A stretch of 64,000 bases of DNA from Mobula hypostoma (lineage: Eukaryota), in assembly GCF_963921235.1 (NCBI RefSeq), contig NC_086097.1, positions 53,942,001 through 54,006,000 of the forward strand, in the 5' to 3' direction. A model generated the notes under the pieces. The model did no database searches. It had not been told where the DNA came from and saw nothing but the letters and a program-made list of their open reading frames with translations. This document shows positions 5,087-64,000 of this stretch, piece after piece (within the stretch, counting starts at the first letter, position 1; each line of letters opens with the position of its first letter). Made by a program: the position numbers and the translations under genes.

Positions 5087-5817
5087 CAGACATCCCACCC
5101 TGCAAAAACTGATTTCAGGGAAGTAGCACCACCGATTTGTGAGAGACTGCCAGGAGAGGTGGGATGTCTGCAATAGAGTAGCTCCTTAGCAGCCAGCCAG
5201 CTAGTTTAAATAACGTTAGCTATGTTGATGAACGAATGACACCTGTTAAACTCACCTCAACATGTCTTTTACAGTCTTAACCCACCATGGGCAATAGAAA
5301 AGTCACTGTTGCAAACAGTGCAGCGAGCAACACTGTCATTATTTTTGACCCTTATTAGGCAGGGGTACACTTTAGTGTAGTCTGGGGTGTTGTACGTTTT
5401 ATATTTTCTTTTTTTTTGGAACACTCTGCCATGGCGTGTGCTCACGCTCTTGCTTGCTTTCTCTCTCGCGCTCTCTCTCTCTTTCTCTCGCACGCACGCT
5501 CTCGCTTGCTTTCTCTCTCACACTCTCGCTTGCTTTCTCTCTTGCTCTCTCTCTCGCTTCCTCTCTCACGCTCTCGCTTGCTTCCTCTCTTGCTCTCTCT
5601 CTCGCACTCGCACTCTCTCGCTTGCTTTCCCTCTCGCTTGCTTGCTCTCTCGCTCTCTCTCTCTCTCTCTCACGCTCACTCTCTCGCTTGCTTTCTCTCG
5701 CTCGCTCGCTCTCAAAAAAATTGATTTCCGTGATATTGTATATAATTTGCAGGCATCAGGGAGCCGCTATTCATATGCGGGAGACTCCCGGAACTTCTGG
5801 GAGAGGTGGGATGTCTG
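5087..5817 (-). mobile_element. Non-autonomous TIR DNA transposon (hAT-like) with BED-finger remnant
   Basis: 13-bp TIR CAGACATCCCACC (5087-5099) / GGTGGGATGTCTG (5805-5817). 6-bp TSD CTTCCC (5081-5086, 5818-5823). Minus ORF ARCTVCNSDFSIAHGG continues after a frameshift as DCKRH. Confidence 0.8.
5440..5712. repeat. Compound (CT)n / CTCGCTTGCTTT low-complexity array inside the transposon
   Basis: Repeated ctcgcttgctttctctct units seen directly. Confidence 0.9.
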
Positions 5818-7644
5818 CTTCCCGACACCGTATTCCATCTGCCACTTCTTCGTCCATTTTCCTAATCTGTCTAAGTCCTTCTGTAGCCTCTCTACTTCCT
5901 CAAAACTGCCTGCTGCTCCACCTCTTTTTGAATCATCCACAAACTTGGCCACAAAGCCATCAATTCCATCATCTAAGTCACTGACATATAATGTAAAAAG
6001 AAGCAGTCCCAACACAGACCCCTGTGGAACACTACTTGTCAGCCTTCCTTGTGTCATCCTGCTTTTAGAATACTTCTCCCTCTTTAGGATGTATATATCC
6101 TGCTCCTTGCAAATTGGTCCTAGAAATACCAGCCATTGCTGCTCTGCAGTCATCCCTGCCAATGTTTCCCCCCCACCAGTCAATTTTGGTCCTATCTCAT
6201 GTTTCTATAATTTCCTTTACCCTACTGTAGCTTCTCCTTCTCAGACTTCAGGGTGCATTCTATCATATTATGATCACTGACTCCTAAGGGTTCCTTTACC
6301 TTAAACTCTCTTATCAATTCTGGTTCATTACACAACATTTAAGAAGGAAACATGAGTAGCATTGATTCCTTGCAAGAGAATGTATTGAATTTTTGGATGA
6401 TTTAATATTGACAAAGGTATGCACCTGCTGTTTTTACTCAACATGTTATGAATAAGGTATATTTTTGAAGTTAAAAATATAAATTCTTCATAAAATGCAG
6501 TCTCACCAGGTCAGAAAGCTATAAAGTTGATAGATATCTAATCGCTTCCTGTCAAATAGATAATACATAACTTCCAATCTTCCCTAAATGTGAATTTGGA
6601 TTCCCAGATTATTTACAAAATGGATTTGTAAATTGGAATTCTGCTACAGTATAATTGTATATACAGGTTTCTGGAATTACTGTGTATTTCAGGAATAGGA
6701 TGGCAACAAATTAATTCAAAATATTCAAAATGGTATCATGCTCCACATCTCCCATTCTACACATAAATCACTTTAACCTCAAGGGGACCCTACTTTGACT
6801 TTTTTCCCTTAAATCTGAAGACAGAGACATCCTAAATTCTTAAACACATATCAATTATTTTCACAGTTGCTCTTCAACCAAAGAGAAGCATGTTTTGAGA
6901 CAATGGTTTAAAAATACTATTGGCCCCCTGTGCAAAATAAGATGTGGAAGGGAGAAGGAGGCTAACGTCGGGAAATGCTCTACACCAATATCTATAAGTA
7001 TACTTAGAAAATATCCTTGGACCAAACAAATTCTATGGTTCTCTGCTGACTACTGGTACACTACCCTAAGGATATAGATGTGTAAATGTGATCCGTATGT
7101 GACCATAAATCAGTGGTCAAACTTTTATTGTTGGTTTCATTGAACATAATAGGTAATTAGAAGTAAACTGGTTTATAAATCAAAGAACTGCAGATGCTAG
7201 AAATCTGGAATGAAATCTGAATTTTCTGGAAGCTGACAGCAGACCAGGCAGCATCTGTCAAAAGAGTAACAGATGCAATAGTTCAGGTCAGATTCCCTTC
7301 ATCACAAGCTACTTGACCCCTGAGGGTTAAAGATCACCCTAATGTTATTTTCATCCAATGTTCACGCATATCAGCAAGTGAATGACTGCTTAATGATCAA
7401 AAGCAAGTATAATATAAGTCAACTGTTTTCCTTCCCCAGAATTGAGTGTTAATGCCAGTCAACTTTATATTAACCAAAAAAATTGTGTTTAATTCCGAAA
7501 AAAAACTCAGCTCCAGGACTATGTTTTCAATTTTCTGATGTGATTGGATAAATTGATACTGAGCAGAGGAAACTGCCGATTTTTAATGAGATCTGCTCTT
7601 TCAGATTTATAACCAAGGCTCTTTTTCCCCACCCCCCCACCCCC

Positions 7645-7905: not shown

Positions 7906-9025
7906 TCCTTTCATTTCCAGACTGGTATTGTAGCAGGCAAAATGGGACATGGGGTTGACATGAAAGGAAAAGGTGTCTGGATGTCCTTTATTACCAAATG
8001 CTTTCAAATATAATTGTTCAGCTATGGGGAATTGTGAAATAAATATGAATTTTCTAGAGGTAATTTGGAACTTTCTTAGACTGCCTCAATAAAAGCAGTA
8101 AAAATTAGATTTTTTTTCAAATGTGCAAATTACATATCACAGTTATAAATTCTTGAGGCCTCAAGCATAATTTTTGGCAAAAGGCAGTGGGGACCTGTGA
8201 GAAAACAAATTTCATAAACTGATTTCAGAAAACCATAGAATAGGTGAGATAATGGAGGAACTTTCCCCAAGGACTCAATAGGAATGTACTTCACATACAT
8301 ATACTATCTAGTAGGTAGGATATAGTGAATTTCTGTGGGTCTAAAAATAGTAGTTGTATGGAAAGAGCACGCAAAAATGACAGGCACAGGTTGCGTTCAG
8401 AACTTTACTTCAAAAGCATCGGATTGAACCAAGCTATCCAACAATTTTTTTTCTATATACAGTCTTTGACTTCACCAACATGGTTACCTCCAAAACCATA
8501 GTAGTCCACTGTGTGAAAAGCACATCAGCACATTGAAATTCACTTGTCATTAACTCCACAAACATTGCACCAAGGAAAGATGAAAAAACTTTAGAGATGA
8601 TGTTAATAAATTGATTCCAGAGATGAGAAAATGAATGGTACTGGTTTCCATTAGAAATTCCTATTCAATCTCGATAAGATCTGTCCCACTGAGATGGAAG
8701 GGTTGCCCATTTGGCTTTTTATAGCAATGTAACACTTTCAATTATATGAAACGCCTCAGAGATGTTAATGTAATCTGAAATATTTGACACCCTTTTTCTT
8801 TTTGTTCTACGCATGCCCCATTGGAAATCTTAAGTCTAACTCAAGTTCCAAATTAATGATTATGACAAATAAGGCATACCTGCTAAAATAGCAGAAGTGT
8901 CTTAAAACTTCATTTACAAGTTAATACTGAAATGATAGGCTTTAGTTTGTGAACAACCTACAAAAAAGTTTCACAATGATCAGCCGTTCATTAACCAAAG
9001 CTAAGATATAGTTTCATGCGAGACA

Positions 9026-9200
9026 AAGAAGAGAAAATCTGCAGATGCTGGAAATCCAAGCAACACACACAAAATGCTGGAGGAACTCAGGAGGCCAGGC
9101 AGCATCTGGGAGAAGAGTACTGTCGACGTTTCAGGCCGAGACCCTTCGGCAGGACCTAGAAGCTGCCTGGCCTGCTGAGACCCTTCAGCATTTTGTGTGT
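9026..9200. mobile_element. Short PLE-tail fold-back element with hammerhead-like motif
   Basis: TSD gtttcatgcgagaca (9011-9025) / gtttcataagagaca (9201-9215). Minus strand reads cctgccgaagggtctcggcctgaaacgtcgac, followed by an inverted partial arm. Confidence 0.8.
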
Positions 9201-9349
9201 GTTTCATAAGAGACAGATGAGACTACAGTTCAGGTTTAAGATAGTGCTGGTAAAACCCAACGACTACTTATCGGTGGCAAGCAAAACAAAGAAAATAACT
9301 AAATACCTTATTACAAACATTTTCTCTGGTAAAATTCTTGGTAAACAAT

Positions 9350-11995: not shown

Positions 11996-12144
11996 TTCAA
12001 GGGAGAACTACACCTATTCTATTTCTGGCATTCCCACAAACGCTGGTCTCACTTTAGGATCAAAATCAGGTTTATTATCACCAGCATGTGTCGTGAAATT
12101 TGTTAACTCAGCAGCAGTAATTCAATGCAAGACATGATAATGTA

Positions 12145-13932
12145 GAGGGAACGGGCAGGGACCCTATAAAGGAGGTGGGGGGAGGGTGGGAAGGAGAAGG
12201 CTGGTAGGTTCCAGGTGAAAAACCAGTAAGGGGAAAGATAAAGGGGTGGGGGAGCGGAAGGAGGGAGGTGATAGGCAGGAAAGGTGAAGAAGGAATAGGG
12301 GAAAACACAAGGGGTAGTAGAAGGAGGTGGAACCACAAGGGAGGTGATAGGCAGCTGGGGAAGGGGCAGAGTGACATAGGGATAGAGGAAGGGAGGGGGA
12401 GGGAATTACCGGAAGTTGGAGAATTCTATGTTCATACTAAGGGGCTGGAGACTACCTAGACGGTATATGAGGTGTTGCTCCTCCAACCTGAGTTTAGCCT
12501 CATCATGGCAGTAGAGGAGGCCATGTATGGACATATGTGAATGGGAGTGGGAAGCAGAGTTGAAGTGGGTGGCTACTGGGAGATCCTGTCTGTTTTGGCA
12601 AACGGAGCGGAGGTGCTCGACGAAGCGGTCCCCCAATCTGCGTCGGGTTTCACCGATGTAGAGGAGGCCGCACCGGGAGCACCGGATGCAATAGATGACC
12701 CCAACAGACTCACAAGGGAATGGCAACTCATCCTTGGAGCAACTATACCTCTTCCCACCCCGCCACATGTAAAAATGCCATTCCCTATTCCCAGTTCCTC
12801 CGTCTCTGCCGCATCTGCTCCGAGGATGAGGTTTTCCGTTCCAGGACATCTCAAATGTCCTCTTTCTTTAAGGATCATGTTTTCCCTTCTGCTGTCATCA
12901 ATGATGCCCTCACCCGCATCTCCTCCATTTCCTGCACTTCGGCTCTCACCCCATCCTCCCGCCACCACAACAGGGACAGAGTTCCCCTTGTCCTCACCTA
13001 CCACCCCACCAGCCTCCGGATCCAGCACATTATCCTCTGCAACTTCCGCCACCTTCAACGGACCCCACCACTAAGCATATCTTTCCCTCTCCACCCCTCT
13101 CCGCTTTCCACAGGGATCGGTCCCTCCGCGACTCCCTAGTCCACAAGTCCCTCCCCACGGATCTCCCACCTGGGACTTATCCCTGTAAGCGCAAGTGCTA
13201 CAACTGTCCCTACACCTCCTCTCTTGCCACCATTCAGGGCCCCAAATAGTTCTTCCAAGTGAGGCAACACTTCACTTGTGAGTCTGTTGGGGTCATCTAT
13301 TGCATCCGGTGCTCCCGGTGCGGGCTCCTCTACATCGGTGAAACCCGACGCAGATTGGGGGACCGCTTCGTTGAGCACCTCCGCTCCGTCTGCTACAGCA
13401 GACAGGATCTCCCAGTAGCCACCCACTTCAACTCTGCTTCCCACTCCCATTCAGATATGTCCATACATGGCCTCCTCTACTGCCATGATGAGGCTAAACT
13501 CAGGTTGGAGGAGCAACACCTCATATACCGTCTAGGTAGTCTCCAGCCCCATGATATGAACATAGAATTCTTCAACTTCCGGTAACTCCCTCCCCCTCCC
13601 TTCCCCTATCCCTATGTCACTCTGCCCCTCCCCCAGCTGCCTATCACCTCCCTCATGGTTCCGCCTCCTTCTACTACCGATTGTGTTTTCCCCTATTCCA
13701 TCTTCACCTTTCCTGCCTATCACCTCCCTGCTTCCCCTCCCCCACCCCTTTATCTTTCCTCTTACTGGTTTTTCGCCTGGAACCTACCAGCCTTCTCCTT
13801 CTCACCCTCCCCCCACCTTCTTTATAGGGCCTCTGCCCCTTTCCTCTTCAGTCCTGACAAAGGATTCTGGCCCGAAACGTCGAGCGATCTTTTCCACGGA
13901 TGCTGCCCGGCCTGCTGAGTTCCTCCAGTGTA
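12145..13932 (+). mobile_element. Penelope-like element with RT C-terminus, GIY-YIG endonuclease and an inverted pseudo-LTR
   Basis: YTSSHPATCKNAIPYSQFLRLCRICS (12720-13139) and GVIYCIRCSRCGLLYIGETRRRLGDRFVEHLRSV...VATHF (13259-13585). 12145-12716 is an inverted copy of 13275-13846. Degenerate hammerhead at 13849-13886. Confidence 0.92.
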
Positions 13933-13934
13933 TT

Positions 13935-14920
13935 GTGAGTGTTTATATGTACATTGAATAGATTTTAAATAGTAATAGTATTAAAAAGAAAGTGAGGTAG
14001 TCTTCATGGATTCAATGTCCATTTAGGAATCACATAGAAGCTGTTCTTGAGTTGCTGAGTGTGCCTTCAGGTTTCTGTACTTCCATCTATAGAAGTTTTT
14101 GAGTGTTTTAGTTGACCAACCAAATCTCTATAAACTCCAAATGAAATATAGCCTTGCCTTTTTGTTAGCTACATTGATATGTTCAGACCAGGTTAGATCC
14201 TCAGAGATACTGACACCCAGGAACTTGCAAATTGCTCACACCGAGCCCTGTATGAGGATTATTGCAACTTACCCTTCCTGAAGTCCACAATCAGCTCTTT
14301 TGTCTTACTGACGTTGAATGCACGGTTGTTGCTGTGACACCACTGAACTGATGTATCTCGCTCCTGTACGTCCTCTCATCTCCATCTGAGATTCTACCAA
14401 CAATGGCTGTATCAGCAGCAAGTTTATAGATGGTATTTGAGCTCTGCCTAGCCACACAGTCATGAGTGTCGAGGGAGTAGAGCAGTGGGCTAAGCACACA
14501 CCCCTGAGGTACGTCAGTGTTGATCATCAGCAAAGAGGAGATATTATCTCCAATCCACGCAGATTGTGGTCTTCCATTTAGAAAGTTGAGGATCCAATTG
14601 CAGAGGGGGGTACAGAGACCCAGGTTCTATATCTTATCGATCAGGTCTGTGGGAATGATGGTGTTAAACGGTGAGCTATAGTCAACGAACAGCATTCTGA
14701 CATAGGTGCTTCTATTGTCCAGGTGATTTAAGGTTGTGTGAAGAGCCATTGAGATTGCATCTGCTGTTGACCTATTGTGGTGATAGGCAAATCGCAATGG
14801 GTCCAGGTCCTTGCCGAGGCAGGAGTTCAGTCTAGTCATGACCAACCTCTCAAAGCATTTCATCACCATTGCTGTGAGTACTACTGGGCGATAGTCATTA
14901 AGGCAGCTCACACTACTCTT
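13935..14920 (-). mobile_element. Rex1/Babar LINE remnant (3' end at about 12060-12145; continues at about 16537-17090)
   Basis: ORFs 14627-14911 and 14291-14533 ([16 protein letters not shown]). ORF 16335-16631 (EVPTCFKNSIIIPMPKK) continues the frame across the CR1 insertion. Confidence 0.85.
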
Positions 14921-18189: not shown

Positions 18190-18975
18190 AGGTAAGGCAG
18201 CCCTCACCTGCGAATCTTTTGGGGTTACACACACAAAATGCTGGTGGAATGCAGCAGGTCGGGCAGCATATAAGGGCCGAGACCCTTTGTCAGGACTAAC
18301 TGAAAGTGTTTGAATCTTTTGGGGTTCTCTACCGCATCTGGTGTTCTCAATGTGGCCTCCTCAGTACTGGTGAGACCCAATGTAAATTGGGGGATTACTT
18401 TGTTGAGCACCTCCACTCCATCCGTTAAAAAGTGGAATTTCCCTTTGGCCCATCATTTTAATTCCTATCCCCATTTCTATTCCAACATATCAGTCCACGG
18501 CCTCCTCTTCTGCCATGATGAGGCCACTCCTGCACTCTCAGGGTGGAAGAGCAACATCTCATATTCCCTCTAGGTAGCCTCCAACCTGATGGCATGAACA
18601 TCAATTTCTCCTTCTAGTAAAATTCTTTTGTTACCCCCCCCCCCCCGGCTTGTTACCTCTCCTCCTCACCTGCCCATCACCTCCTCCTTCCCTTTCTCCC
18701 ATGGATATCTATCAGATTCCTTTGTTCTCCAGCCTTTGCCTTTCCTATTGATCACCTCCCAGCCTCTCATTTCATCCCACTGTCCCCCACCCACCTGGCT
18801 TCATCTATCACCTTTCAGCTTGTCCTCCTTCCCCTCCCCCCACCTTTTAATTCTTGCTTCTCCCCCTTCCTACCCAGACCTGATGAAGGGTCTCAGCCCA
18901 AAAAGTTGACTGTTTATTCATTTCCATAAATGCTGCCTGACCTGTTGAGTTCCTCCAGCATTTTGTGTGTGTTAC
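18190..18975 (+). mobile_element. Decayed PLE (GIY-YIG plus 3' tail with hammerhead remnant at 18875-18912)
   Basis: Homologous to 13260-13930; peptide LAHHFNS...VHGLLFCHDEAT. Confidence 0.85.
18227..18311 (-). mobile_element. 85-bp PLE-tail insertion nested in a PLE
   Basis: Perfect 15-bp TSD GAATCTTTTGGGGTT (18212-18226, 18312-18326). Confidence 0.85.
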
Positions 18976-21039: not shown

Positions 21040-21575
21040 CTAACACACACAGAAAGCTGGAGGAACTCAGCAGGTCAGGCAGCATCTGTGGAGAGAAATA
21101 AAAAGTCAACGTTTTGGGCCAAGACTCCTCATCAGGACTGGAAAGGAAAGGGGGAGGAGGAAAGAAACCAGAATGGGAAGGTGGGTGAGGGGGAAGTCGT
21201 ACAAGGAGTGCGGGACAGTGAATGGGTGGGTGGATGAAGTGAGAAGCTGGGAGGTGAGAGGTGAAACCAGGTTTGGGGGACAGTGAGTGGGTGGGTAGAT
21301 GAAGCGAGAAGCTGGTAGGTGAAACCAGGTTTTGGGGACAGTGAGTGGGTGGGTGGATGAAGTGAGAAGCTGGGAGGTGAGAGGTGAAACCAGGTTTGGG
21401 GGACAGTGAGTGAGTGGGTGGATGAAGTGAGAAGCTGGGAGGTGAGAGGTGAAACCAGGTTTAGGGGACAGTGAGTGGGTGGGTGGATGAAGCGAGAAGC
21501 TGGTATGTGAAACCAGGTTTGGGGGACAGTGAGTGGGTGGGTGGATGAAGCAAGAAGCTGGGAGGTGAGAGGTGG
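21040..21575 (-). mobile_element. PLE 3' tail with hammerhead motif (21104-21140) and an internal tandem expansion
   Basis: Minus strand reads cagtcctgatgaggagtcttggcccaaaacgttgact plus the shared tail. Confidence 0.8.
21212..21575. repeat. Minisatellite, about 6 copies of a ~56-65 bp unit
   Basis: Unit gggacagtgagtgggtgggtggatgaagtgagaagctgg(gaggtgaga)ggtgaaaccaggttt repeated head to tail. Confidence 0.92.
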
Positions 21576-33501: not shown

Positions 33502-34340
33502 TCAGCGACACCCACATCCCTCTACAACCATCTCCTGATAGTTCTTCAGAACAACTTTATCGTATTCGTCCAAGTAGAGCATTGATATAGGGCTGAGTTC
33601 TGTAGGGACACAGCAAGCCTTGGGGATGTTGGAATTTACAGAATTTACAAGAGTTTGCACGATAGCGTGATTAGTAGAGTTCAGGTGATCTGCCAGTGGA
33701 AACGGGCAGTCCCCGTGACAGTAAAAAGCCTGGTAACCAGGCGGTGCCACTATCCAGTCATTCCAGCCCACGTCGCTGAAATCCACATACAGAGAGTGCC
33801 TCCTGCAGTGCGATCTGTTTTTCTTGCGTTTTTGGCCTTTGCTGCTACGTTTCACCCTCCGGACCAGAGCGTGTCCTTTGCCATCGTGACTGAAAGTTAC
33901 GAGCAAGGGTCTGAACTGGGACCAGTCGCCGTTCCGCTGGTGCAGCGACCTGCTAATCCTCACGTGCATACCTTGCCGGCTTTTCGTTTCGTTCAGGTTT
34001 ATTACCTCGACAGCCAGCCCGTGGTTGGGTTGTTTATGCAAAGTCCACCTCAGCACTGCCGGGCTCACGTCAAAGCTCTCCCATCGTGTCCTGTTCTGGT
34101 GGACTAGTCTGGTGTCTAGGAGTCTCGTGATGAGGTCGCCCTTCTCGCTGGGGGTTCTCATGATTTCATAAACATTGATGCGGTGGAAACCCTCGTTCCA
34201 GTTCAAAACGGTGTCGATTTGCTCTCGGTACAGCCTCAGTTCTGCCGACGACAGCACCTCATTCTCGGGCACCGCGCTGATATTAAACACAAAACGAAGT
34301 TGGGTGCCTTCTCTCTGTCCTGGCATCAGCTCCAAGTGTT
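33502..34340 (-). CDS. BMP4: BMP4 last coding exon (prodomain, furin sites RISR and RVKR, 114-aa mature TGF-beta domain at 33846-33505)
   Basis: Acceptor tctggaacag|AA restores GAA-CAC-TTG (EHL). Seven-cysteine knot [25 protein letters not shown]...VVEGCGCR followed by TGA. 352+839=1191 nt = 396 aa plus stop; intron is 606 bp. Confidence 0.97.
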
Positions 34341-34946
34341 CTGTTCCAGAACAGAAAGACAACCCTTAAAATCGAATTTACCCATGTAAGCGCGCACATC
34401 TCTGGACTAAACTAATGTATGAAAGCCGACCGACAGAAGCCAACAAAGAGCCGCCTTGCAAAAAGCTCGCGCTCGACAAAAGAAAAGCTGTGTACAAAAG
34501 CAATGACTGCAAACTACAAATCATTGCACGAGCAAAGGACTAACTGGGAAAGGCGGCTGGCTTCAGAAAATGTTTTTGTCACCTGCCAGGAACACCCTCC
34601 CCTAGCATTTAAATCGAAACATGAACTATAAACAGTACTAGTTGGATAATTCTAAAACGGCATACATATATATACGACTATCGACTGATGTCATAATGTT
34701 TTTAATTTAAGCAGCGCAATAGATATAATTTACATTTTAAAATTATACACATGGTTGAAAGGTGTCCCAAAGAATATTGGCAATCAACAACGTCCCCCGT
34801 GGCCAAAATGTTACACAGAAACTTGGTGCAAGAATTACCCGTGTGTACATTTCACATAAACTCCCGCCATGTTCTGCTATCACTGTAAATCAAACAAAAA
34901 TCAATAATCTTAAATGTTTCTTGTAGAGTGATTGCTGGTCCAGTAC

Positions 34947-35298
34947 CTTCATGGTGGAAGCTCCTCACGGTGTTGGCCCGACTGGTGGATCTCTCGGGAT
35001 ATTCGAAGCTGATGTCGTGGGTGACCTCGTCCCCAGACTGGAGTCTGTAGAGATCCAGCATGTACTGGGGAACCACGGCAGATTTACTGGGCTGCGGGCG
35101 CCGGTGGAGTCCGAACATATTGAGTAAAGTGGCCTCGAATTCCCGCAGCAGTTCATGGTTTTGCGGAGAGCGACGTCCACCCGCCTGGTTTTGTTCCGCA
35201 AACTTTTTCCTTCCTTCCTCTGGTATTAGACTAGCACTACCTCCCAGTAAGACTTGGCATAATAAAATTACCATCAGCATTCGGTTACCAGGAATCAT
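34947..35298 (-). CDS. BMP4: BMP4 first coding exon (signal peptide and N-terminal prodomain)
   Basis: Translates [20 protein letters not shown]...[11 protein letters not shown], the BMP4-type N-terminus. Acceptor ttccgcag|AGACACCATG (exon starts 35305). Donor GAAG|gtactg with GT at 34946-34945. 352 coding nt, phase 1. Confidence 0.97.
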
Positions 35299-35952
35299 GG
35301 TGTCTCTGCGGAACAAAACAAGCAACAACAGAAAAAAAAGAATGAGAATTAAGAGCGATCTTCAGCAATCCACGCCCCAGAAAGAGAGCGCACGACACAG
35401 AAACAGAGAGTGGGAGAAGAGGTGTAATTACTTGGTCTCTCTCGGTTACAGTTAAATAGCCCATAATCAGGCAGATAGCACCATCTTGTTACTCTTTGTG
35501 TTTTCACTATCTTAGTAATTATCTTGGGCTGGTTTCTTTAGGAGCGACACAGAAAGTCTGAAACGGGCATCTTACCAAGCGGCCCATAATTGTTGAGAAT
35601 GGTGGTGATGGTATGATGTGTGGGTGTGTGTGTGGTGGGGGGGGGGTAACATTCCTGAAGTGTTAAAATCGTTTTACTTTGATTGTGTACACTTTCACAT
35701 CGAACAAGTTGATTATCTCCAGTCTATCGGTACATTTCCTTAATTGCTTATTGACAACCAAGGCACAAGTGCAAAAGCCATACTCTCACCCAACAGAGAG
35801 CTACAATTAATCATGCAGGAAATGATCGCAAGTACATGCTACAAGAGAAATCAAATAAATGGTTAAACACACACATATTTTTAGTGTACAAACAAATATA
35901 AATAAAATCCCACCACAACCCATTAGGAAAAAGTATAAAAAGTTCTACTCAC

Positions 35953-42869: not shown

Positions 42870-43660
42870 TGATTAACCAAGACTGGAAAGGAAAAGGATA
42901 GAAGCCAGAAGTAAAATGTGGAGGGAGGGGGGAGGTGGGAAGGGGAGGAAAACAGGCTGACATGTGATATTAAAAACGCAAACATGAGGAATTCTGCAGA
43001 AGCTGGCATGTTGCTTGACATGTGATATGTGAGTCCAGGTGAGGGGGAAGATATCTAGTTGTGGGAAGGGAGGAGGATGAAAGGGAATGATGTGAGAAGC
43101 TACAAGGTGATAAGTAGAAGAGGCAAAGGGCTGAAGAAAGAATGCGATAGGAGAAGACAGTAGACCAGGGAATAAAGGGAAGGAGGTTGGTCCAGAAGAG
43201 AATGATGGGCAGGTAATGAGGATGTGGGACGGGAAGAGAAGGGATGAGAGGTGTGGGGCAGAAGAGAGTGGATATCAGAAGTTAGTGAAATCAATGTTCA
43301 TGCTGTCAGGTTGTAGACTACCAAGATGGAATATGAGGTGTTGCTCTTCTAACCTAACTTTAGCCTTATAAAGGTAGTAGAGGAGGCCAAGAAAGACAGG
43401 TTGATGTGGGAACAAGAAGTGACATTGAAATGGGTGGCCACCACGAGATCCTGGCTGTTGTGGAGGACAGAGAAAAGGTTCCTGATGAAGCAATCCCCCA
43501 ATCTGTATTGGGTCTCACCAATGTAGAGACAGTCACTCCGGGAGCACCAGATGCAATAAGTGACCCAACAAACTCACAGGAGAAGCATCACCACGACTTT
43601 GACGACTGTTTAGGGCCCTGAATGGTGGTGAGGGAAGAAGTGTAGGGGCACGGCTGGTAC
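42870..43660 (-). mobile_element. Decayed PLE (GIY-YIG and 3' region; terminal tail displaced to about 40972-41055)
   Basis: ORF 43275-43493 KAKVRLEEQHLIFHLGSLQPDSMNIDFTNF. Confidence 0.82.
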
Positions 43661-44126
43661 ATAGCACAGTTGCAGAGAATCATTGAGTGGTGGCTGAGGG
43701 AAAGAGAAATCTTCTACCTGTTAAGTTGGGTGGGTGGGGGGAGGTGGGCTGGATGAGATGACAGCAGACATGAGAAATTGAGAAGATACAGGTGAAGACG
43801 TACATTTTAATGTATATCTGATTTGCTCATTAAGTTTGTAACTCAAAAATTGGCCCGCCATTGATATATTCAAAGATATCAAAGATAGTGAGAAAGTTAT
43901 ACTAGATGTAGATATCTTCATCTGACAGTATTCTTTTGGGTTCATTCTTATTAACTTCCATTCCACATTTATCAGTGTGCTATTACAAAAGCATATAGAA
44001 TGGGAATTCTTGTTTGAAGTTGTTATGTGGGGAGGTTTAGTCACTCACAACAAGAGAGGTTAGAATATAAATTCTTAAAGTAAGGTTTGAATATGTAGAA
44101 GAAATTCTCAGTTGTTGAACATGATG

Positions 44127-44217
44127 CCCTGATGAAGGGTCTCGGCCTGAAACGTCGACTACTTATTCTTTTCCATAATTGCTGCCCGGCTGATTTCCTC
44201 CAGCACTTTGTGTGCGT
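44127..44217 (+). ncRNA. Minimal hammerhead ribozyme core (44129-44160) in a short PLE tail
   Basis: CTGATGA AGG gtctcgg CCT GAAA CGTC gact has an intact catalytic core, stem II and GUC triplet. The 5' strand of helix I is missing. Confidence 0.7.
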
Positions 44218-44402
44218 TTCTCATTTATTGAATGCCATTTAGGAAGAGTGAAAATGTCATGTGTTGGGTCCTGCTGCAGTATTTCTCATTGCTGACTTCT
44301 CCTTAATGATTTGATGTGTAGTGGTTTGATTGTTATCATGCTCAGTCTAGAGGCCAGAGCTGTGGTTTTTATTTTATAATTATTCTTGAGTGTAGTTAAA
44401 TA

Positions 44403-54289: not shown

Positions 54290-54485
54290 CAGTGACCTCT
54301 CTATGCTCAGCTGTATACACAAACTCTTGGAACAGTATCTTATCTTTTAATTAAAGTGATTACTACTTTCTGGATTGAATAATAAGCTCAAAAGTTACAG
54401 ATCATTAGCATGTCCGACCATCTCACCACCTTCCTTTTCAGATAAATATTCTGAACCTTTTAAATCAGAATCAGGTTTTTTATCA

Positions 54486-54679
54486 ACAAACAAGAAAAAA
54501 TCTGCAGATGCTGGAAATCCAAGCAACACATACAAAATCCTGGAGGAACTCAGGAGGCCAGGCAGCATCTATGGAAAAGAGTACAGTCGACGTTTCGGGC
54601 TGAAACTCTTCCTCAGGGCTCATTTCCATAGATGCTGCCTGTCCTGCTGAGTTCCTCAAGCATTTCGTGTGTGTGTTGC
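54486..54679. mobile_element. PLE-tail fold-back element
   Basis: TSD tcaggttttttatca (54471-54485) / tcagatttattatca (54680-54694). Inversion junction directly after the hammerhead remnant (about 54617). Confidence 0.8.
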
Positions 54680-54717
54680 TCAGATTTATTATCACTACCT
54701 TATATGAAGTGAAACTT

Positions 54718-56165: not shown

Positions 56166-56753
56166 ATCATTTTCCAACAGAATGTAATTTATGCTTTCAG
56201 CTAATGCTTACAATTGGTTCAATATTTGGCATGAGACTGGTATGATGGTTTCTTTGAAAATGTTTCAATTGGCTAAGTAAGCAAAAGCTACCAAACTGGA
56301 AAAGTTGAAGGAACAAGAGAAGAGAAACTACTAAATATGCACATTTAGTTTCATCTCAGTTAAAATTTTATTTTGTTATTAATTTTAATAATGACAAAGG
56401 ATTCTACAGATAGGATTAGATTTATTCATCCGGGATTCTTTGGTAGATTCAGCATTACACACCCTTTGCCTCGGAGATAATAGCTTTCTCTTTCTGCTTG
56501 ACAAAATAGAGAAGTATGCTCAATTGTAAAAATCTTGATGCCATCTAGTGGCTATAAAGTATTGCCAATTTTCAATATGCAAGATCTGTTACCATTAATT
56601 AATAACTTCTGAATATGGGCCATAGTAACACAATTCAGGTGTTTGTTATCCAGCATGGTTTCCTGTAAAAAAACATTCAACAAGTTTATTTCACTCAACT
56701 TGCAATCAGAAGACACTCTCTATAGACCCTAGTACCTCTTTGTACGCAAGTTA

Positions 56754-56976
56754 CACACATAAAAGTTGCTGGTGAACGCAGCAGGCCAGGCAGCATCTCT
56801 AGGAAGAGGTGCAGTCGACGTTTCAGGCCGAGACCCTTTATCAGGAAGCCTGATGAAGGGTCTCGGCCTGAAACGTCGACTGCACCTCTTCCTAGAGATG
56901 CTGCCTGGCCTGCTGCGTTCACCAGCAACTTTCATGTGTGTTGCTTGAATTTCCAGCATCTGCAGAATTCCTGTTG
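56754..56976. mobile_element. Near-perfect fold-back PLE-tail element with two opposed hammerhead motifs
   Basis: 92-bp arms 56754-56845 and 56849-56940 with a 3-nt loop. TSD tgtacgcaagtta (56741-56753) / tgtacgtaagtta (56977-56989). Confidence 0.92.
56850..56882 (+). ncRNA. Minimal hammerhead ribozyme core
   Basis: CTGATGA AGG gtctcgg CCT GAAA CGTC gactg. Confidence 0.7.
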
Positions 56977-57622
56977 TGTACGTAAGTTAGTTGTGTTCTG
57001 GATGGTTGGCAAAGAAAGCAGTGTTCTGGTTAGTGATATGTGGCAACCAGAACCACTTAACATATGTGTGACATCCATCAGCTAAGTGACTTCAATCTCC
57101 ATGATATAACAGCACACATTTGATAAACACAGAGATTATACTTGATCAGTATATTCTACATGGGACACAAGATAAGTTTCCTTTCAAATGTCACCAAAGT
57201 AGATTGTGCAGTTTGCAGTAGCTGAACACGTGCATACAGGTCAAGATAAACCACGTCACAATATACAAATATGTATATCGAGCGTGGAATGCTTCATAAG
57301 ACTGGAATGGTTAAGATCAACAGATTTCAGCATAAGGGCTGCTCGGTTTGCAATGCACAATGTGGCCAGGAGATGAAACTTTTGGATCATAAGAACTGCA
57401 GTTCTAGGTTGTGCCAAAGCCCTTGTAGAATCAGAGAACCAGTATCACAGGAGGCTGTGTCTATGCTGGTTCTCAAACCACAGCAACCTACTGTTTCCAA
57501 CCCCAGCCCTTCCTCTGTAGCCTTGCAAACTTTTCTTATCATATATTTACCCAATACCCTCTTGAAGATAATGATTTTAAAGATAAAGATAACTTTTATT
57601 TGTCACATATACATTGAAGCAT

Positions 57623-63294: not shown

Positions 63295-63435
63295 CCCTTC
63301 CCCCCAACCTTTTTATTCTAGCATCTTCCCTCTTCCTTCTCAGTCCTGATGAAGGGTCTCTGCCCAAAACATGGACTATTTATTCATTTCCATAGGTGCT
63401 ATCTGACCTGCTGAGTTGCTCCAGCATTGTGTTTT
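63295..63435 (+). mobile_element. PLE tail with hammerhead remnant (63341-63378)
   Basis: cagtcCTGATGAagggtctctgcccaaaacatggact. Confidence 0.75.
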
Positions 63436-63537
63436 GTTTTTACAAGTAAATCCAATTTTCCCATTTTTCTGCTCTCATGCCTTCTCCCTTACACAAGAAA
63501 TGAGGTATTTCTTCTCTGCAAAGACAGCATTGCTAGG

Positions 63538-63730
63538 ATGAGGAATTCCGCAGATGCTGGAAATTCAAGCAACACACATCAAAGTTGCTGGTGAACGCAG
63601 CAGGCCAGGCAGCATCTCTAGGAAGAGGTACAGTCGACATTTTGGGCCCAGACCCTTCGTCCCTGACAACTGTACCTCTTCCTAAAGATGCCGCCTGGCC
63701 TGCTGCGTTCACCAGCAACCTTGATGTGTG
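63538..63730. mobile_element. PLE-tail fold-back element, second subfamily
   Basis: Perfect 13-bp TSD CAGCATTGCTAGG (63525-63537, 63731-63743); inverted arms. Confidence 0.88.
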
Positions 63731-64000
63731 CAGCATTGCTAGGCTTCATATTCAACAGGTCATCATCCCTCATTGTCAATGTAGAGTCACAGAGCCAGAG
63801 TTATACAGGCTGAAAATAGATCATTCAGCCAACTCATTCATGGCAACCAAGGTGCCAGCTGACCCATCCTATCTGCCTTTCTTTTGGCCCATATCCTTCT
63901 AAATCACTCCAATCCCTATACCTATCTAAACATCTTTTCAACTTTGTCATTGTTCCTGCCTCTACCATTACCTGCAGCAACTTGTTCCATACACCCAGTC

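Follow-up and report, generated by a model that had tools for sequence, protein, structure and literature searches.

A 223-bp palindromic insertion built from the hammerhead-bearing end module of a Penelope-like element

Described insertions of related elements

According to passages in three papers (PMC3846280, PMC8557442, PMC8969392), insertions of Penelope-like elements (PLEs) can show an inverted, 5'-truncated pLTR, a tail of 30–40 bp on one side only, a target-site duplication (TSD) and palindromes at the junctions. The palindrome described here lies in a window of 64 kb, by which is meant the whole stretch of DNA that was analysed. It contains the end module of a GIY-YIG element, a head-to-head inverted and 5'-truncated copy of that module, a one-sided tail within the 30–40-bp range and a TSD that encloses them. 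PLEs are known to insert with two element ends placed back to back, and among such insertions the palindrome represents the shortest complete form.

Pen2a_Av of Adineta vaga, as presented in passages of PMC3846280 and in a scheme in PMC8557442, is built in the same way, with a head-to-head inverted, 5'-truncated copy beside a direct pLTR, a one-ended tail (31 bp there, 36 here), a single TSD around the unit and a junction palindrome. The palindrome differs from it in having no ORF, in a TSD of 13 rather than 8–10 bp, in belonging to an extremely abundant family, and in a centre located at the upstream edge of a hammerhead. PAc, a Poseidon element of Anolis carolinensis (Frangieh et al. 2024, PMC11167929), also carries a hammerhead in its end module and has two reverse transcription (RT) start sites that bound the tail. 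It is, however, a member of a different clade, and miniature palindromes, inverted stubs and a 5' hotspot before the hammerhead do not figure in the passages of that paper at hand.

The minimal hammerhead ribozymes (min-HHRs) of metazoan PLEs are described in passages of Cervera and De la Pena (2014, PMC4209133) as consisting of core boxes, a short helix II and a palindromic ACGU that needs a second copy on the same strand. The motifs found here resemble them in their core boxes, in the unpaired nucleotide before helix II and in the ACGU that replaces helix III. In Schistosoma, pairs of min-HHRs occur on opposite strands 100–700 bp apart (same source). In the palindrome, by contrast, only 5 nt separate the two cores, helix I has been lost, a G8A change is found in one core, and each strand has a single motif, so that the second same-strand copy for a dimeric fold is absent.

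An inverted segment can also arise in other ways. In the twin priming of L1, which Ostertag and Kazazian are said to have described in 2001, both target nicks reportedly prime synthesis and an inverted 5' segment is left within one TSD. The L1 segments do not overlap, whereas the two arms of the fold-backs described here are usually copies of one and the same stretch, begun at two fixed sites inside the element. The non-LTR retrozymes of animals (bioRxiv 10.64898/2026.07.22.740005) are similarly non-coding, hammerhead-bearing and derived from PLEs, but in the passages of that preprint at hand they form head-to-tail tandem arrays, while the palindrome is a single head-to-head pair. The strings 'palindrom', 'target site' and 'tail' are absent from the text of the preprint, as far as its main part goes.

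Among the titles and starts of abstracts in the open-licence literature, we found no palindromic non-autonomous PLE family and no twin priming by PLEs. The same literature yielded nothing on palindromes of cartilaginous fish that lack an ORF and have a hammerhead at the centre, nor on a coupled use of the two start sites, although Repbase entries and supplements may show the form. What the present analysis adds to the published features is modest, namely the coupling of two start sites and a hotspot for 5' ends.

Anatomy, source and age of the palindrome

The insert occupies 56754–56976 (223 bp), exactly where an earlier note, made from the sequence alone, had placed it. Its parts are listed in Table 1, in which element positions are numbered from the first C of CCTGA (+1). 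The two arms, at 56754–56845 and 56849–56940, have 2 mismatches per 92 bp (56839/56855 and 56761/56933). The TSD reads TGTACG[C/T]AAGTTA and is identical at 12 of 13 positions, a score equalled by 0.8% of 1500 random position pairs in the same search space. The earlier description, of 92-bp arms with about two mismatches around an AAG loop and a 13-bp TSD with one mismatch, is therefore accurate, and the proposal that the whole went in as one unit holds as well, the TSD enclosing both arms and the tail. What was overlooked is that the element is asymmetric. The right arm is 36 nt longer than the left (56941–56976), with no mirror copy, and this extension is the known Penelope 'tail'. The 3' end of the left TSD, GCAAGTTA, resembles the continuation of the element, TCAAGCAA, at 5 of the last 7 bases.

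Table 1. Features of the palindrome and of related copies in the window
Feature	Position	Strand	Remarks
Left TSD, 13 bp	56741..56753	+	From the TSD search
Inverted arm, 92 nt, element +1 to +92, without tail	56754..56845	-	Outer end is the proximal start site
Centre AAG	56846..56848	.	Stands where the 5' strand of helix I would be
Sense arm, element +1 to +92 (end module / pLTR of the PLE)	56849..56940	+
Tail, 36 nt	56941..56976	+	Ends at the distal start site; on that arm only (tails: passages of PMC3846280, PMC8557442, PMC11167929)
Right TSD, 13 bp	56977..56989	+	1 mismatch
Minimal hammerhead motif	56850..56877	+	CTGATGA at 56850-56856, helix II, GAAAC at 56870-56874, GTC; nominal cut after 56877
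Minus-strand hammerhead core CTGATAA	56838..56844	-	G8 to A, private to the inverted arm
Sister fold-back, same young subfamily	63525..63743	-	Perfect 13-bp TSD; tailed arm from +4
Sister fold-back, older subfamily	54471..54694	-	TSD 13/15; tailed arm from CCTGA boundary; inverted arm ends near +38
Sister fold-back, older subfamily	9011..9215	-	TSD 13/15; tailed arm from CCTGA boundary; inverted arm ends near +45
Micro-insertion	42958..43028	-	Perfect 13-bp TSD; 7-nt inverted proximal-site stub (p = 0.004) and sense tail from about +105
Tail-less copy	18212..18326	-	Perfect 15-bp TSD; 6-nt inverted distal-site stub (p = 0.017)
Tail-less copy	44105..44232	+	Starts at CCTGA; TSD 13/15; possible 5-nt inverted distal stub, borderline (p = 0.058)
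Longer broken copy, related subfamily	12141..13943	+	C-terminal part of RT, CX3CxxC linker, GIY-YIG with CCHH, pyrimidine-rich 3' region, hammerhead end module

A transcript of the palindrome is predicted to fold as a single long hairpin (-209.3 kcal/mol, z = -29; none of 200 shuffles was as stable), which agrees with the dsRNA of about 92 bp that had been anticipated. The corresponding DNA hairpin has a predicted energy of -122.7 kcal/mol. On such models, a Dicer or ADAR substrate and a DNA cruciform are possible in principle.

The right arm matches about 20 places within the window. The clue to its source comes from the module at 13852–13922, which is 76–78% identical to the palindrome arm over 72–73 nt and adjoins a GIY-YIG remnant. 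This match supports the PLE origin that had been suggested: the unit of the palindrome is an end module with a hammerhead, and the GIY-YIG PLE from which it derives is very abundant. In the longer broken copy to which the module belongs, the RT part was read from the translation and gave no match in Pfam, and the linker reads CKRKCYNC. The Pfam GIY-YIG domain (PF01541) was matched on an inverted copy at 12141–12746 (E 1.3e-4). This inverted copy, of 607 bp, precedes the remnant and is 93% identical to 13246–13850. According to passages of PMC8557442, the Neptune and Nematis clades are distinguished by a CX2-5CxxC linker, which Penelope/Poseidon lack. This Neptune-clade linker and the CCHH motif of the endonuclease (EN) are present in the neighbouring related copy, a feature shared with Nematis. 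By the linker of that copy, the element appears to be of Neptune type; the window itself holds only broken copies of related subfamilies and no RT core.

The outer end of the 607-bp inverted arm falls on the AGT|CCTGA boundary, at which short copies start. Unless this is a chance match, the boundary may be a break in the RNA that is found both as a 3' and as a 5' end. Around this inverted-arm copy, no convincing TSD was seen by eye.

The earlier note had described two hammerheads lying back to back. This overstates what is there. The core boxes (CUGANGA and GAAA...UH) are complete on the plus strand (CTGATGA, GAAACGTC), the minus-strand core deviates (CTGATAA), and neither motif is predicted to fold. 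In intact sister copies, the xAGTC before CTGA pairs with GACTG past the cut to form helix I. This 5' strand is lost at the centre of the palindrome, which retains 1 contiguous pair on the plus and 2 on the minus strand, against 4–5 in the copies at 21.1, 54.8 and 63.3 kb. For helix II, the pair probability falls from 0.5 in a sister copy to about 0.2 in an isolated arm and to 0.0 on either strand of the full palindrome. The G8A change of the minus core falls on the essential G8 and would be expected to impair cleavage. With helix I lost, G8A on the minus strand and the arms locked in a predicted 92-bp hairpin, neither hammerhead should cleave. A G8C change abolishes hammerhead cleavage according to a passage in PMC11167929. 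Rfam at the gathering threshold gave 0 matches in the 64 kb, which is no evidence against the motif, because min-HHRs lack helix III. The hammerhead cut (+29/+30) was considered as the turning point of the palindrome and rejected, as both arms run through the cut site.

Each arm carries one private change relative to common family variants. The arms differ at 2 of 92 positions, and the arms and TSD together at 3 of 105 (2.9%, CI 0.6–8.1). A contig from a second organism (B) begins inside the tail at 56955 and continues into the flank, differing at 13 of 466 positions (2.8%); at least the right end of the insertion is thus shared by organism B. A contig of sequencing run X1 carries the tail–flank junction with 0 differences in 466. 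In a third organism (C, run X9), the flank shows 19 differences in 432 (4.4%) plus gaps, and one contig of 1106 nt aligns only from 56989, the 429 letters before that being unlike the window. The element is probably absent in organism C, judging from an alignment that begins at 56989 and leaves the TSD outside. The divergence of arms and TSD (2.9%) matches that of the flank from organism B (2.8%), as expected of neutral ageing, and the figures fit an insertion shortly before the A–B split. The palindrome is an inert relic, without sign of function.

The rest of the window contains a BMP2/4-type gene with two coding exons at 33502–35361 on the minus strand (Pfam TGF_beta and propeptide; best PDB match BMP-2, E 6e-68). 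The N-terminus of its product presumably resembles BMP4. By this gene the host is a vertebrate, probably a ray or other cartilaginous fish. The palindrome lies about 21 kb past the coding start of this gene. A long (TC)-type low-complexity tract at 5376–5700 adjoins a LINE reverse-transcriptase fragment, and more LINE fragments, read from ORF translations, are found at about 10.7–12.1, 41.0–42.6, 50.7–51.2 and 60.7–61.3 kb. An AT-rich 25-bp inverted repeat with a 6-nt spacer (6442–6497, 84%) is unrelated and probably due to chance.

Sister copies and the wider family

The window contains three further long fold-backs (9.1, 54.6 and 63.6 kb) and two or three stub-sized ones. Counting the palindrome, the four long fold-backs have TSDs of 13–15 bp each and represent two subfamilies, and their centres are all different. 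In all four, the outer end of the inverted arm lies in a TGTGTG tract (about +92 to +99) and the opposite arm is the tailed one. The earlier note had offered a fold-back family with a shared junction as one option. The four centres in the window do not support it, nor do the variable centres in contigs described below. A search across the window for TCAGG-N0-10-CCTGA gave 2 matches against 1.14 expected, and no second copy of the AAG centre.

The inverted arm of the 63.6-kb fold-back reaches +1 with about 21 nt missing internally (by eye). The gap, at 63662–63670, covers helix II and the GAAAC box and lies between two CG/TG dinucleotides; the 18.2-kb copy likewise lacks about 26 nt in the helix II/GAAAC region of the hammerhead. 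Either skipping of the hairpin by the RT or a later deletion would explain the 63.6-kb gap.

In the micro-insertion at 43.0 kb, the stub and the tail piece do not overlap, and the stub copies sequence that is absent from the sense piece. A palindrome is therefore not the unit. This 45-bp insertion interrupts an older Penelope copy (about 42900–43650) in its 3' region.

TSDs were sought for 19 copies, 10 of which scored 7 or more. The TSDs of the sister copies are 11–15 bp long. Scores of 7–9 are reached by 1–18% of random positions, depending on the gap allowed, and the TSD calls at 23.6 and 50.4 kb are weak for this reason. A clear arm or stub from the opposite start site is present in 6 of the 10 TSD-flanked copies; one is borderline (44.1 kb, where the stub matches the proximal reference equally well), and three have none (23.6, 50.4 and 54.8 kb). 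All 6 clear two-ended cases combine a proximal with a distal end, without a single pair of like ends (p = 0.016 at even odds; 0.008 if 7/7), the p-values for stubs and pairing being for single pre-named regions, uncorrected and from a small sample. The long arm starts between -3 and +4 in 6 of the 10 copies, and at the hammerhead cut (+30) in none.

To view the family more widely, contigs from sequencing runs were compared with the stretch 56820–57420, which runs from the centre through the right arm into the right flank; runs X10–X20, with shares under 0.2, were left out, and counts from run X1 are lower bounds. In X1 at least 59,863 contigs fall on this stretch. The summed depth peaks at 1.1e7 on the arm against 13.3 on the unique flank, a contrast that is not a copy number and shows only that the family is huge. 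Loose 3' ends cluster at 56946 (at least 154), 56972 (at least 403) and 56977 (at least 318), matching the proximal and distal sites. At least 798 loose ends occur before 56849, with a consensus ending in CAGT (agreement 0.39); these are a mixture of truncated copies and copies in which the native upstream sequence goes on. To the left of the centre, the depth in the bin is 7019, about 530 times that of the unique flank (13.3), and at least 130 records run past the ends of the stretch. Palindromes centred near CCTGA are therefore common.

The contigs also show indels at the centre, with +C in at least 5, -2 in at least 22, -3 in at least 16 and +T in at least 14. The +T variant has a T after 56848, and TCAGGA-AG-CCTGA is one base shorter. 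We infer that the centre AAG represents antisense ...TCAGGA joined to AG(T)CCTGA without its T. Opposite-strand joints connect 56849 with 56884 (runs X1, X5 and X9) and with 56935 (X1, X5 and X23). Among the 12 joints listed out of 100, for which the strand is unstated, 8 end at 56849 and have partners at 56880–56915; between the two sides stand AGT in 5, and AGA, GT and T in one each. One arm thus often extends all the way to AGT|CCTGA, and the other may end at any point.

In run X23, which is guessed to be RNA, the family occurs in 4938 records, with opposite-strand joints at 56849/56935 and 56870/56935. Contigs of this run gave no cover of the flank adjoining the insertion, and no RNA run was listed among those carrying the window's sequence; neither result bears on expression. 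If X23 is RNA without DNA carry-over, other fold-back copies may be present in transcripts. A metagenome scan with a 19-nt family motif gave 114 loci, of which 0 align to the element at E 1e-6, and these were set aside as chance matches.

How the palindrome was made, and what it means

On the basis of these observations, the explanation that we favour, and consider rather probable, is that the palindrome is a single insertion of a Neptune-type PLE built by priming from both target nicks. The GIY-YIG endonuclease would cut the two target strands about 13 nt apart, giving the TSD. Each 3'-OH would then prime reverse transcription within the end module, one at the distal site (+128), which gives the tail, and the other at the proximal site (+92). 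Both cDNAs would run to the 5' end of the RNA, at the AGT before CCTGA, where the A of AGUCCUGA is a candidate transcription start. Finally, the cDNA ends would be joined head to head, by a template jump or by end joining, and the second strands filled in. The palindrome would be nearly perfect because both arms ran to the end, while an arm that ended early would leave a lopsided fold-back or a stub of 6–7 nt. It would be rebuilt at each insertion and would not itself spread. Double priming in this family, an RNA that begins at AGT and the joining of the cDNA ends are inferences, and the template may have been one RNA or two. A junction made during reverse transcription was one of the options in the earlier note (as template switching), and it is supported here; the choice that was offered between a family and a one-off inversion does not include the reading that we prefer, that of a by-product arising anew at each insertion.

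Support in vitro comes from PAc, and thus applies by analogy, that element being a Poseidon and this one apparently Neptune-type. According to passages of PMC11167929, the PAc protein cleaves and extends both target strands and is modelled as a dimer; RT starts at two internal sites that bound the tail, with uncut RNA as template and without need of hammerhead cleavage; and the choice of start site is alike on both strands. Since that choice is indifferent to strand, it does not by itself predict the coupling of proximal with distal ends. Two observations in our data need to be set against double priming. In three of the 10 TSD-flanked copies no second arm can be seen, and the depth of about 530 times over the centre, which indicates many palindromes with nearly the same centre, is also expected if the palindromes form a family. 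A common arm haplotype was considered as proof of a single RNA and rejected, the variants being frequent in the family and the match not significant.

The initiator consensus is YYANWYY, and a stop at AGT fits it. Before CCTGA, at 13830–13853, 21136–21160 and 63325–63345, there is a pyrimidine tract ending CAG|T, which is like this initiator and also like a splice acceptor. In D. virilis, Penelope has an internal Inr/DPE promoter (passage in PMC2377424), and the end of its intron maps to helix I of the hammerhead (passage in PMC4209133).

The rival that survives best, although we think it unlikely, is self-priming by folding back. Here a target-primed cDNA would reach the 5' end of the RNA, fold by a short match and copy itself as far as the proximal site, and resolution by the endonuclease would leave the tail on one side; the palindrome would still be a by-product of each insertion. 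The anatomy expected is the same, the near-identical arms of one haplotype and the one-sided tail are accounted for, and the centres at 54.6 and 9.1 kb have overlaps of 1–2 nt (by eye) that could serve as the match. In passages of the literature, Arkhipova et al. (2013, PMC3846280) prefer self-priming in a general form, and a tail arising from EN resolution is proposed in PMC8557442. The 43.0-kb insertion is hard to make in this way, its stub having no counterpart in the sense piece to be copied from, and so is the 18.2-kb copy, in which a tail-less arm carries a stub of the tail end. In addition, the opposite-strand joints listed at 56849 share 0 letters, and AGT often stands wholly between the two sides.

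It is less probable still that the palindrome belongs to a non-autonomous palindromic family, transcribed and re-inserted whole or moving like a MITE. The depth over the centre, equivalent to some 530 single copies, and the overrunning contigs would suit such a family, as would the constant outer ends, but the latter are common to non-palindromic copies too. The four centres of the window fold-backs, spread over two subfamilies, and the indel variants at the contig centres are not what a family would give. The termini are moreover asymmetric, the 36-nt unpaired tail breaking up symmetric TIRs abutting the TSD, and a read-through RNA is predicted to be a single 92-bp hairpin.

We give very little weight to the idea that the copies were born perfect palindromes, or ordinary copies, and that cruciform deletion, local inverted duplication or gene conversion later shaped the centre. 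Long palindromes are unstable, the predicted DNA hairpin is strong, and the 63.6-kb inverted arm lacks its 21 nt near the centre, all of which would suit such shaping. On the other hand, the TSD encloses both arms, one side again and again keeps AGT|CCTGA intact while the other varies, stubs of 6–7 nt exist, and the arm divergence fits the age of the locus, with no sign of homogenisation. An assembly artefact (read fold-back or mis-join) is very improbable: none of the contig records listed spans the locus's own centre together with unique flank, but there are a TSD, one private mutation per arm, an asymmetric tail and five or six sister structures, 94–98% of sampled words occur in four runs of the likely source sample (which are not independent), and the tail–flank junction recurs in the X1 contig and in organism B.

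Returning to double priming, a stronger version can be put forward tentatively, and we would not yet bet on it. One Penelope RNP may obligately prime both strands at two fixed RNA sites, proximal and distal, perhaps by strand displacement on one RNA molecule; the template would start at the initiator-like AGU upstream of the hammerhead rather than at the cut, and thousands of such frozen intermediates would exist in ray-like genomes. If this is true, the length of a palindrome reads out how far each RT went before the cDNAs were joined, and one mechanism would account for both the one-sided tail and the inverted pLTR, in a form countable genome-wide.

Passages of the PLE literature still call the integration cycle undefined, and the value of the palindrome is as one data point on the integration of Penelope-like elements. 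The strict pairing of tailed with tail-less ends, which extends to stubs of 6–7 nt, and the pile-up at AGT|CCTGA are cheap genome-wide counts, which would discriminate double priming from self-priming and locate the 5' end of the RNA. Annotators should beware of taking such palindromes for MITEs, for genes of hairpin RNAs or for paired ribozymes.
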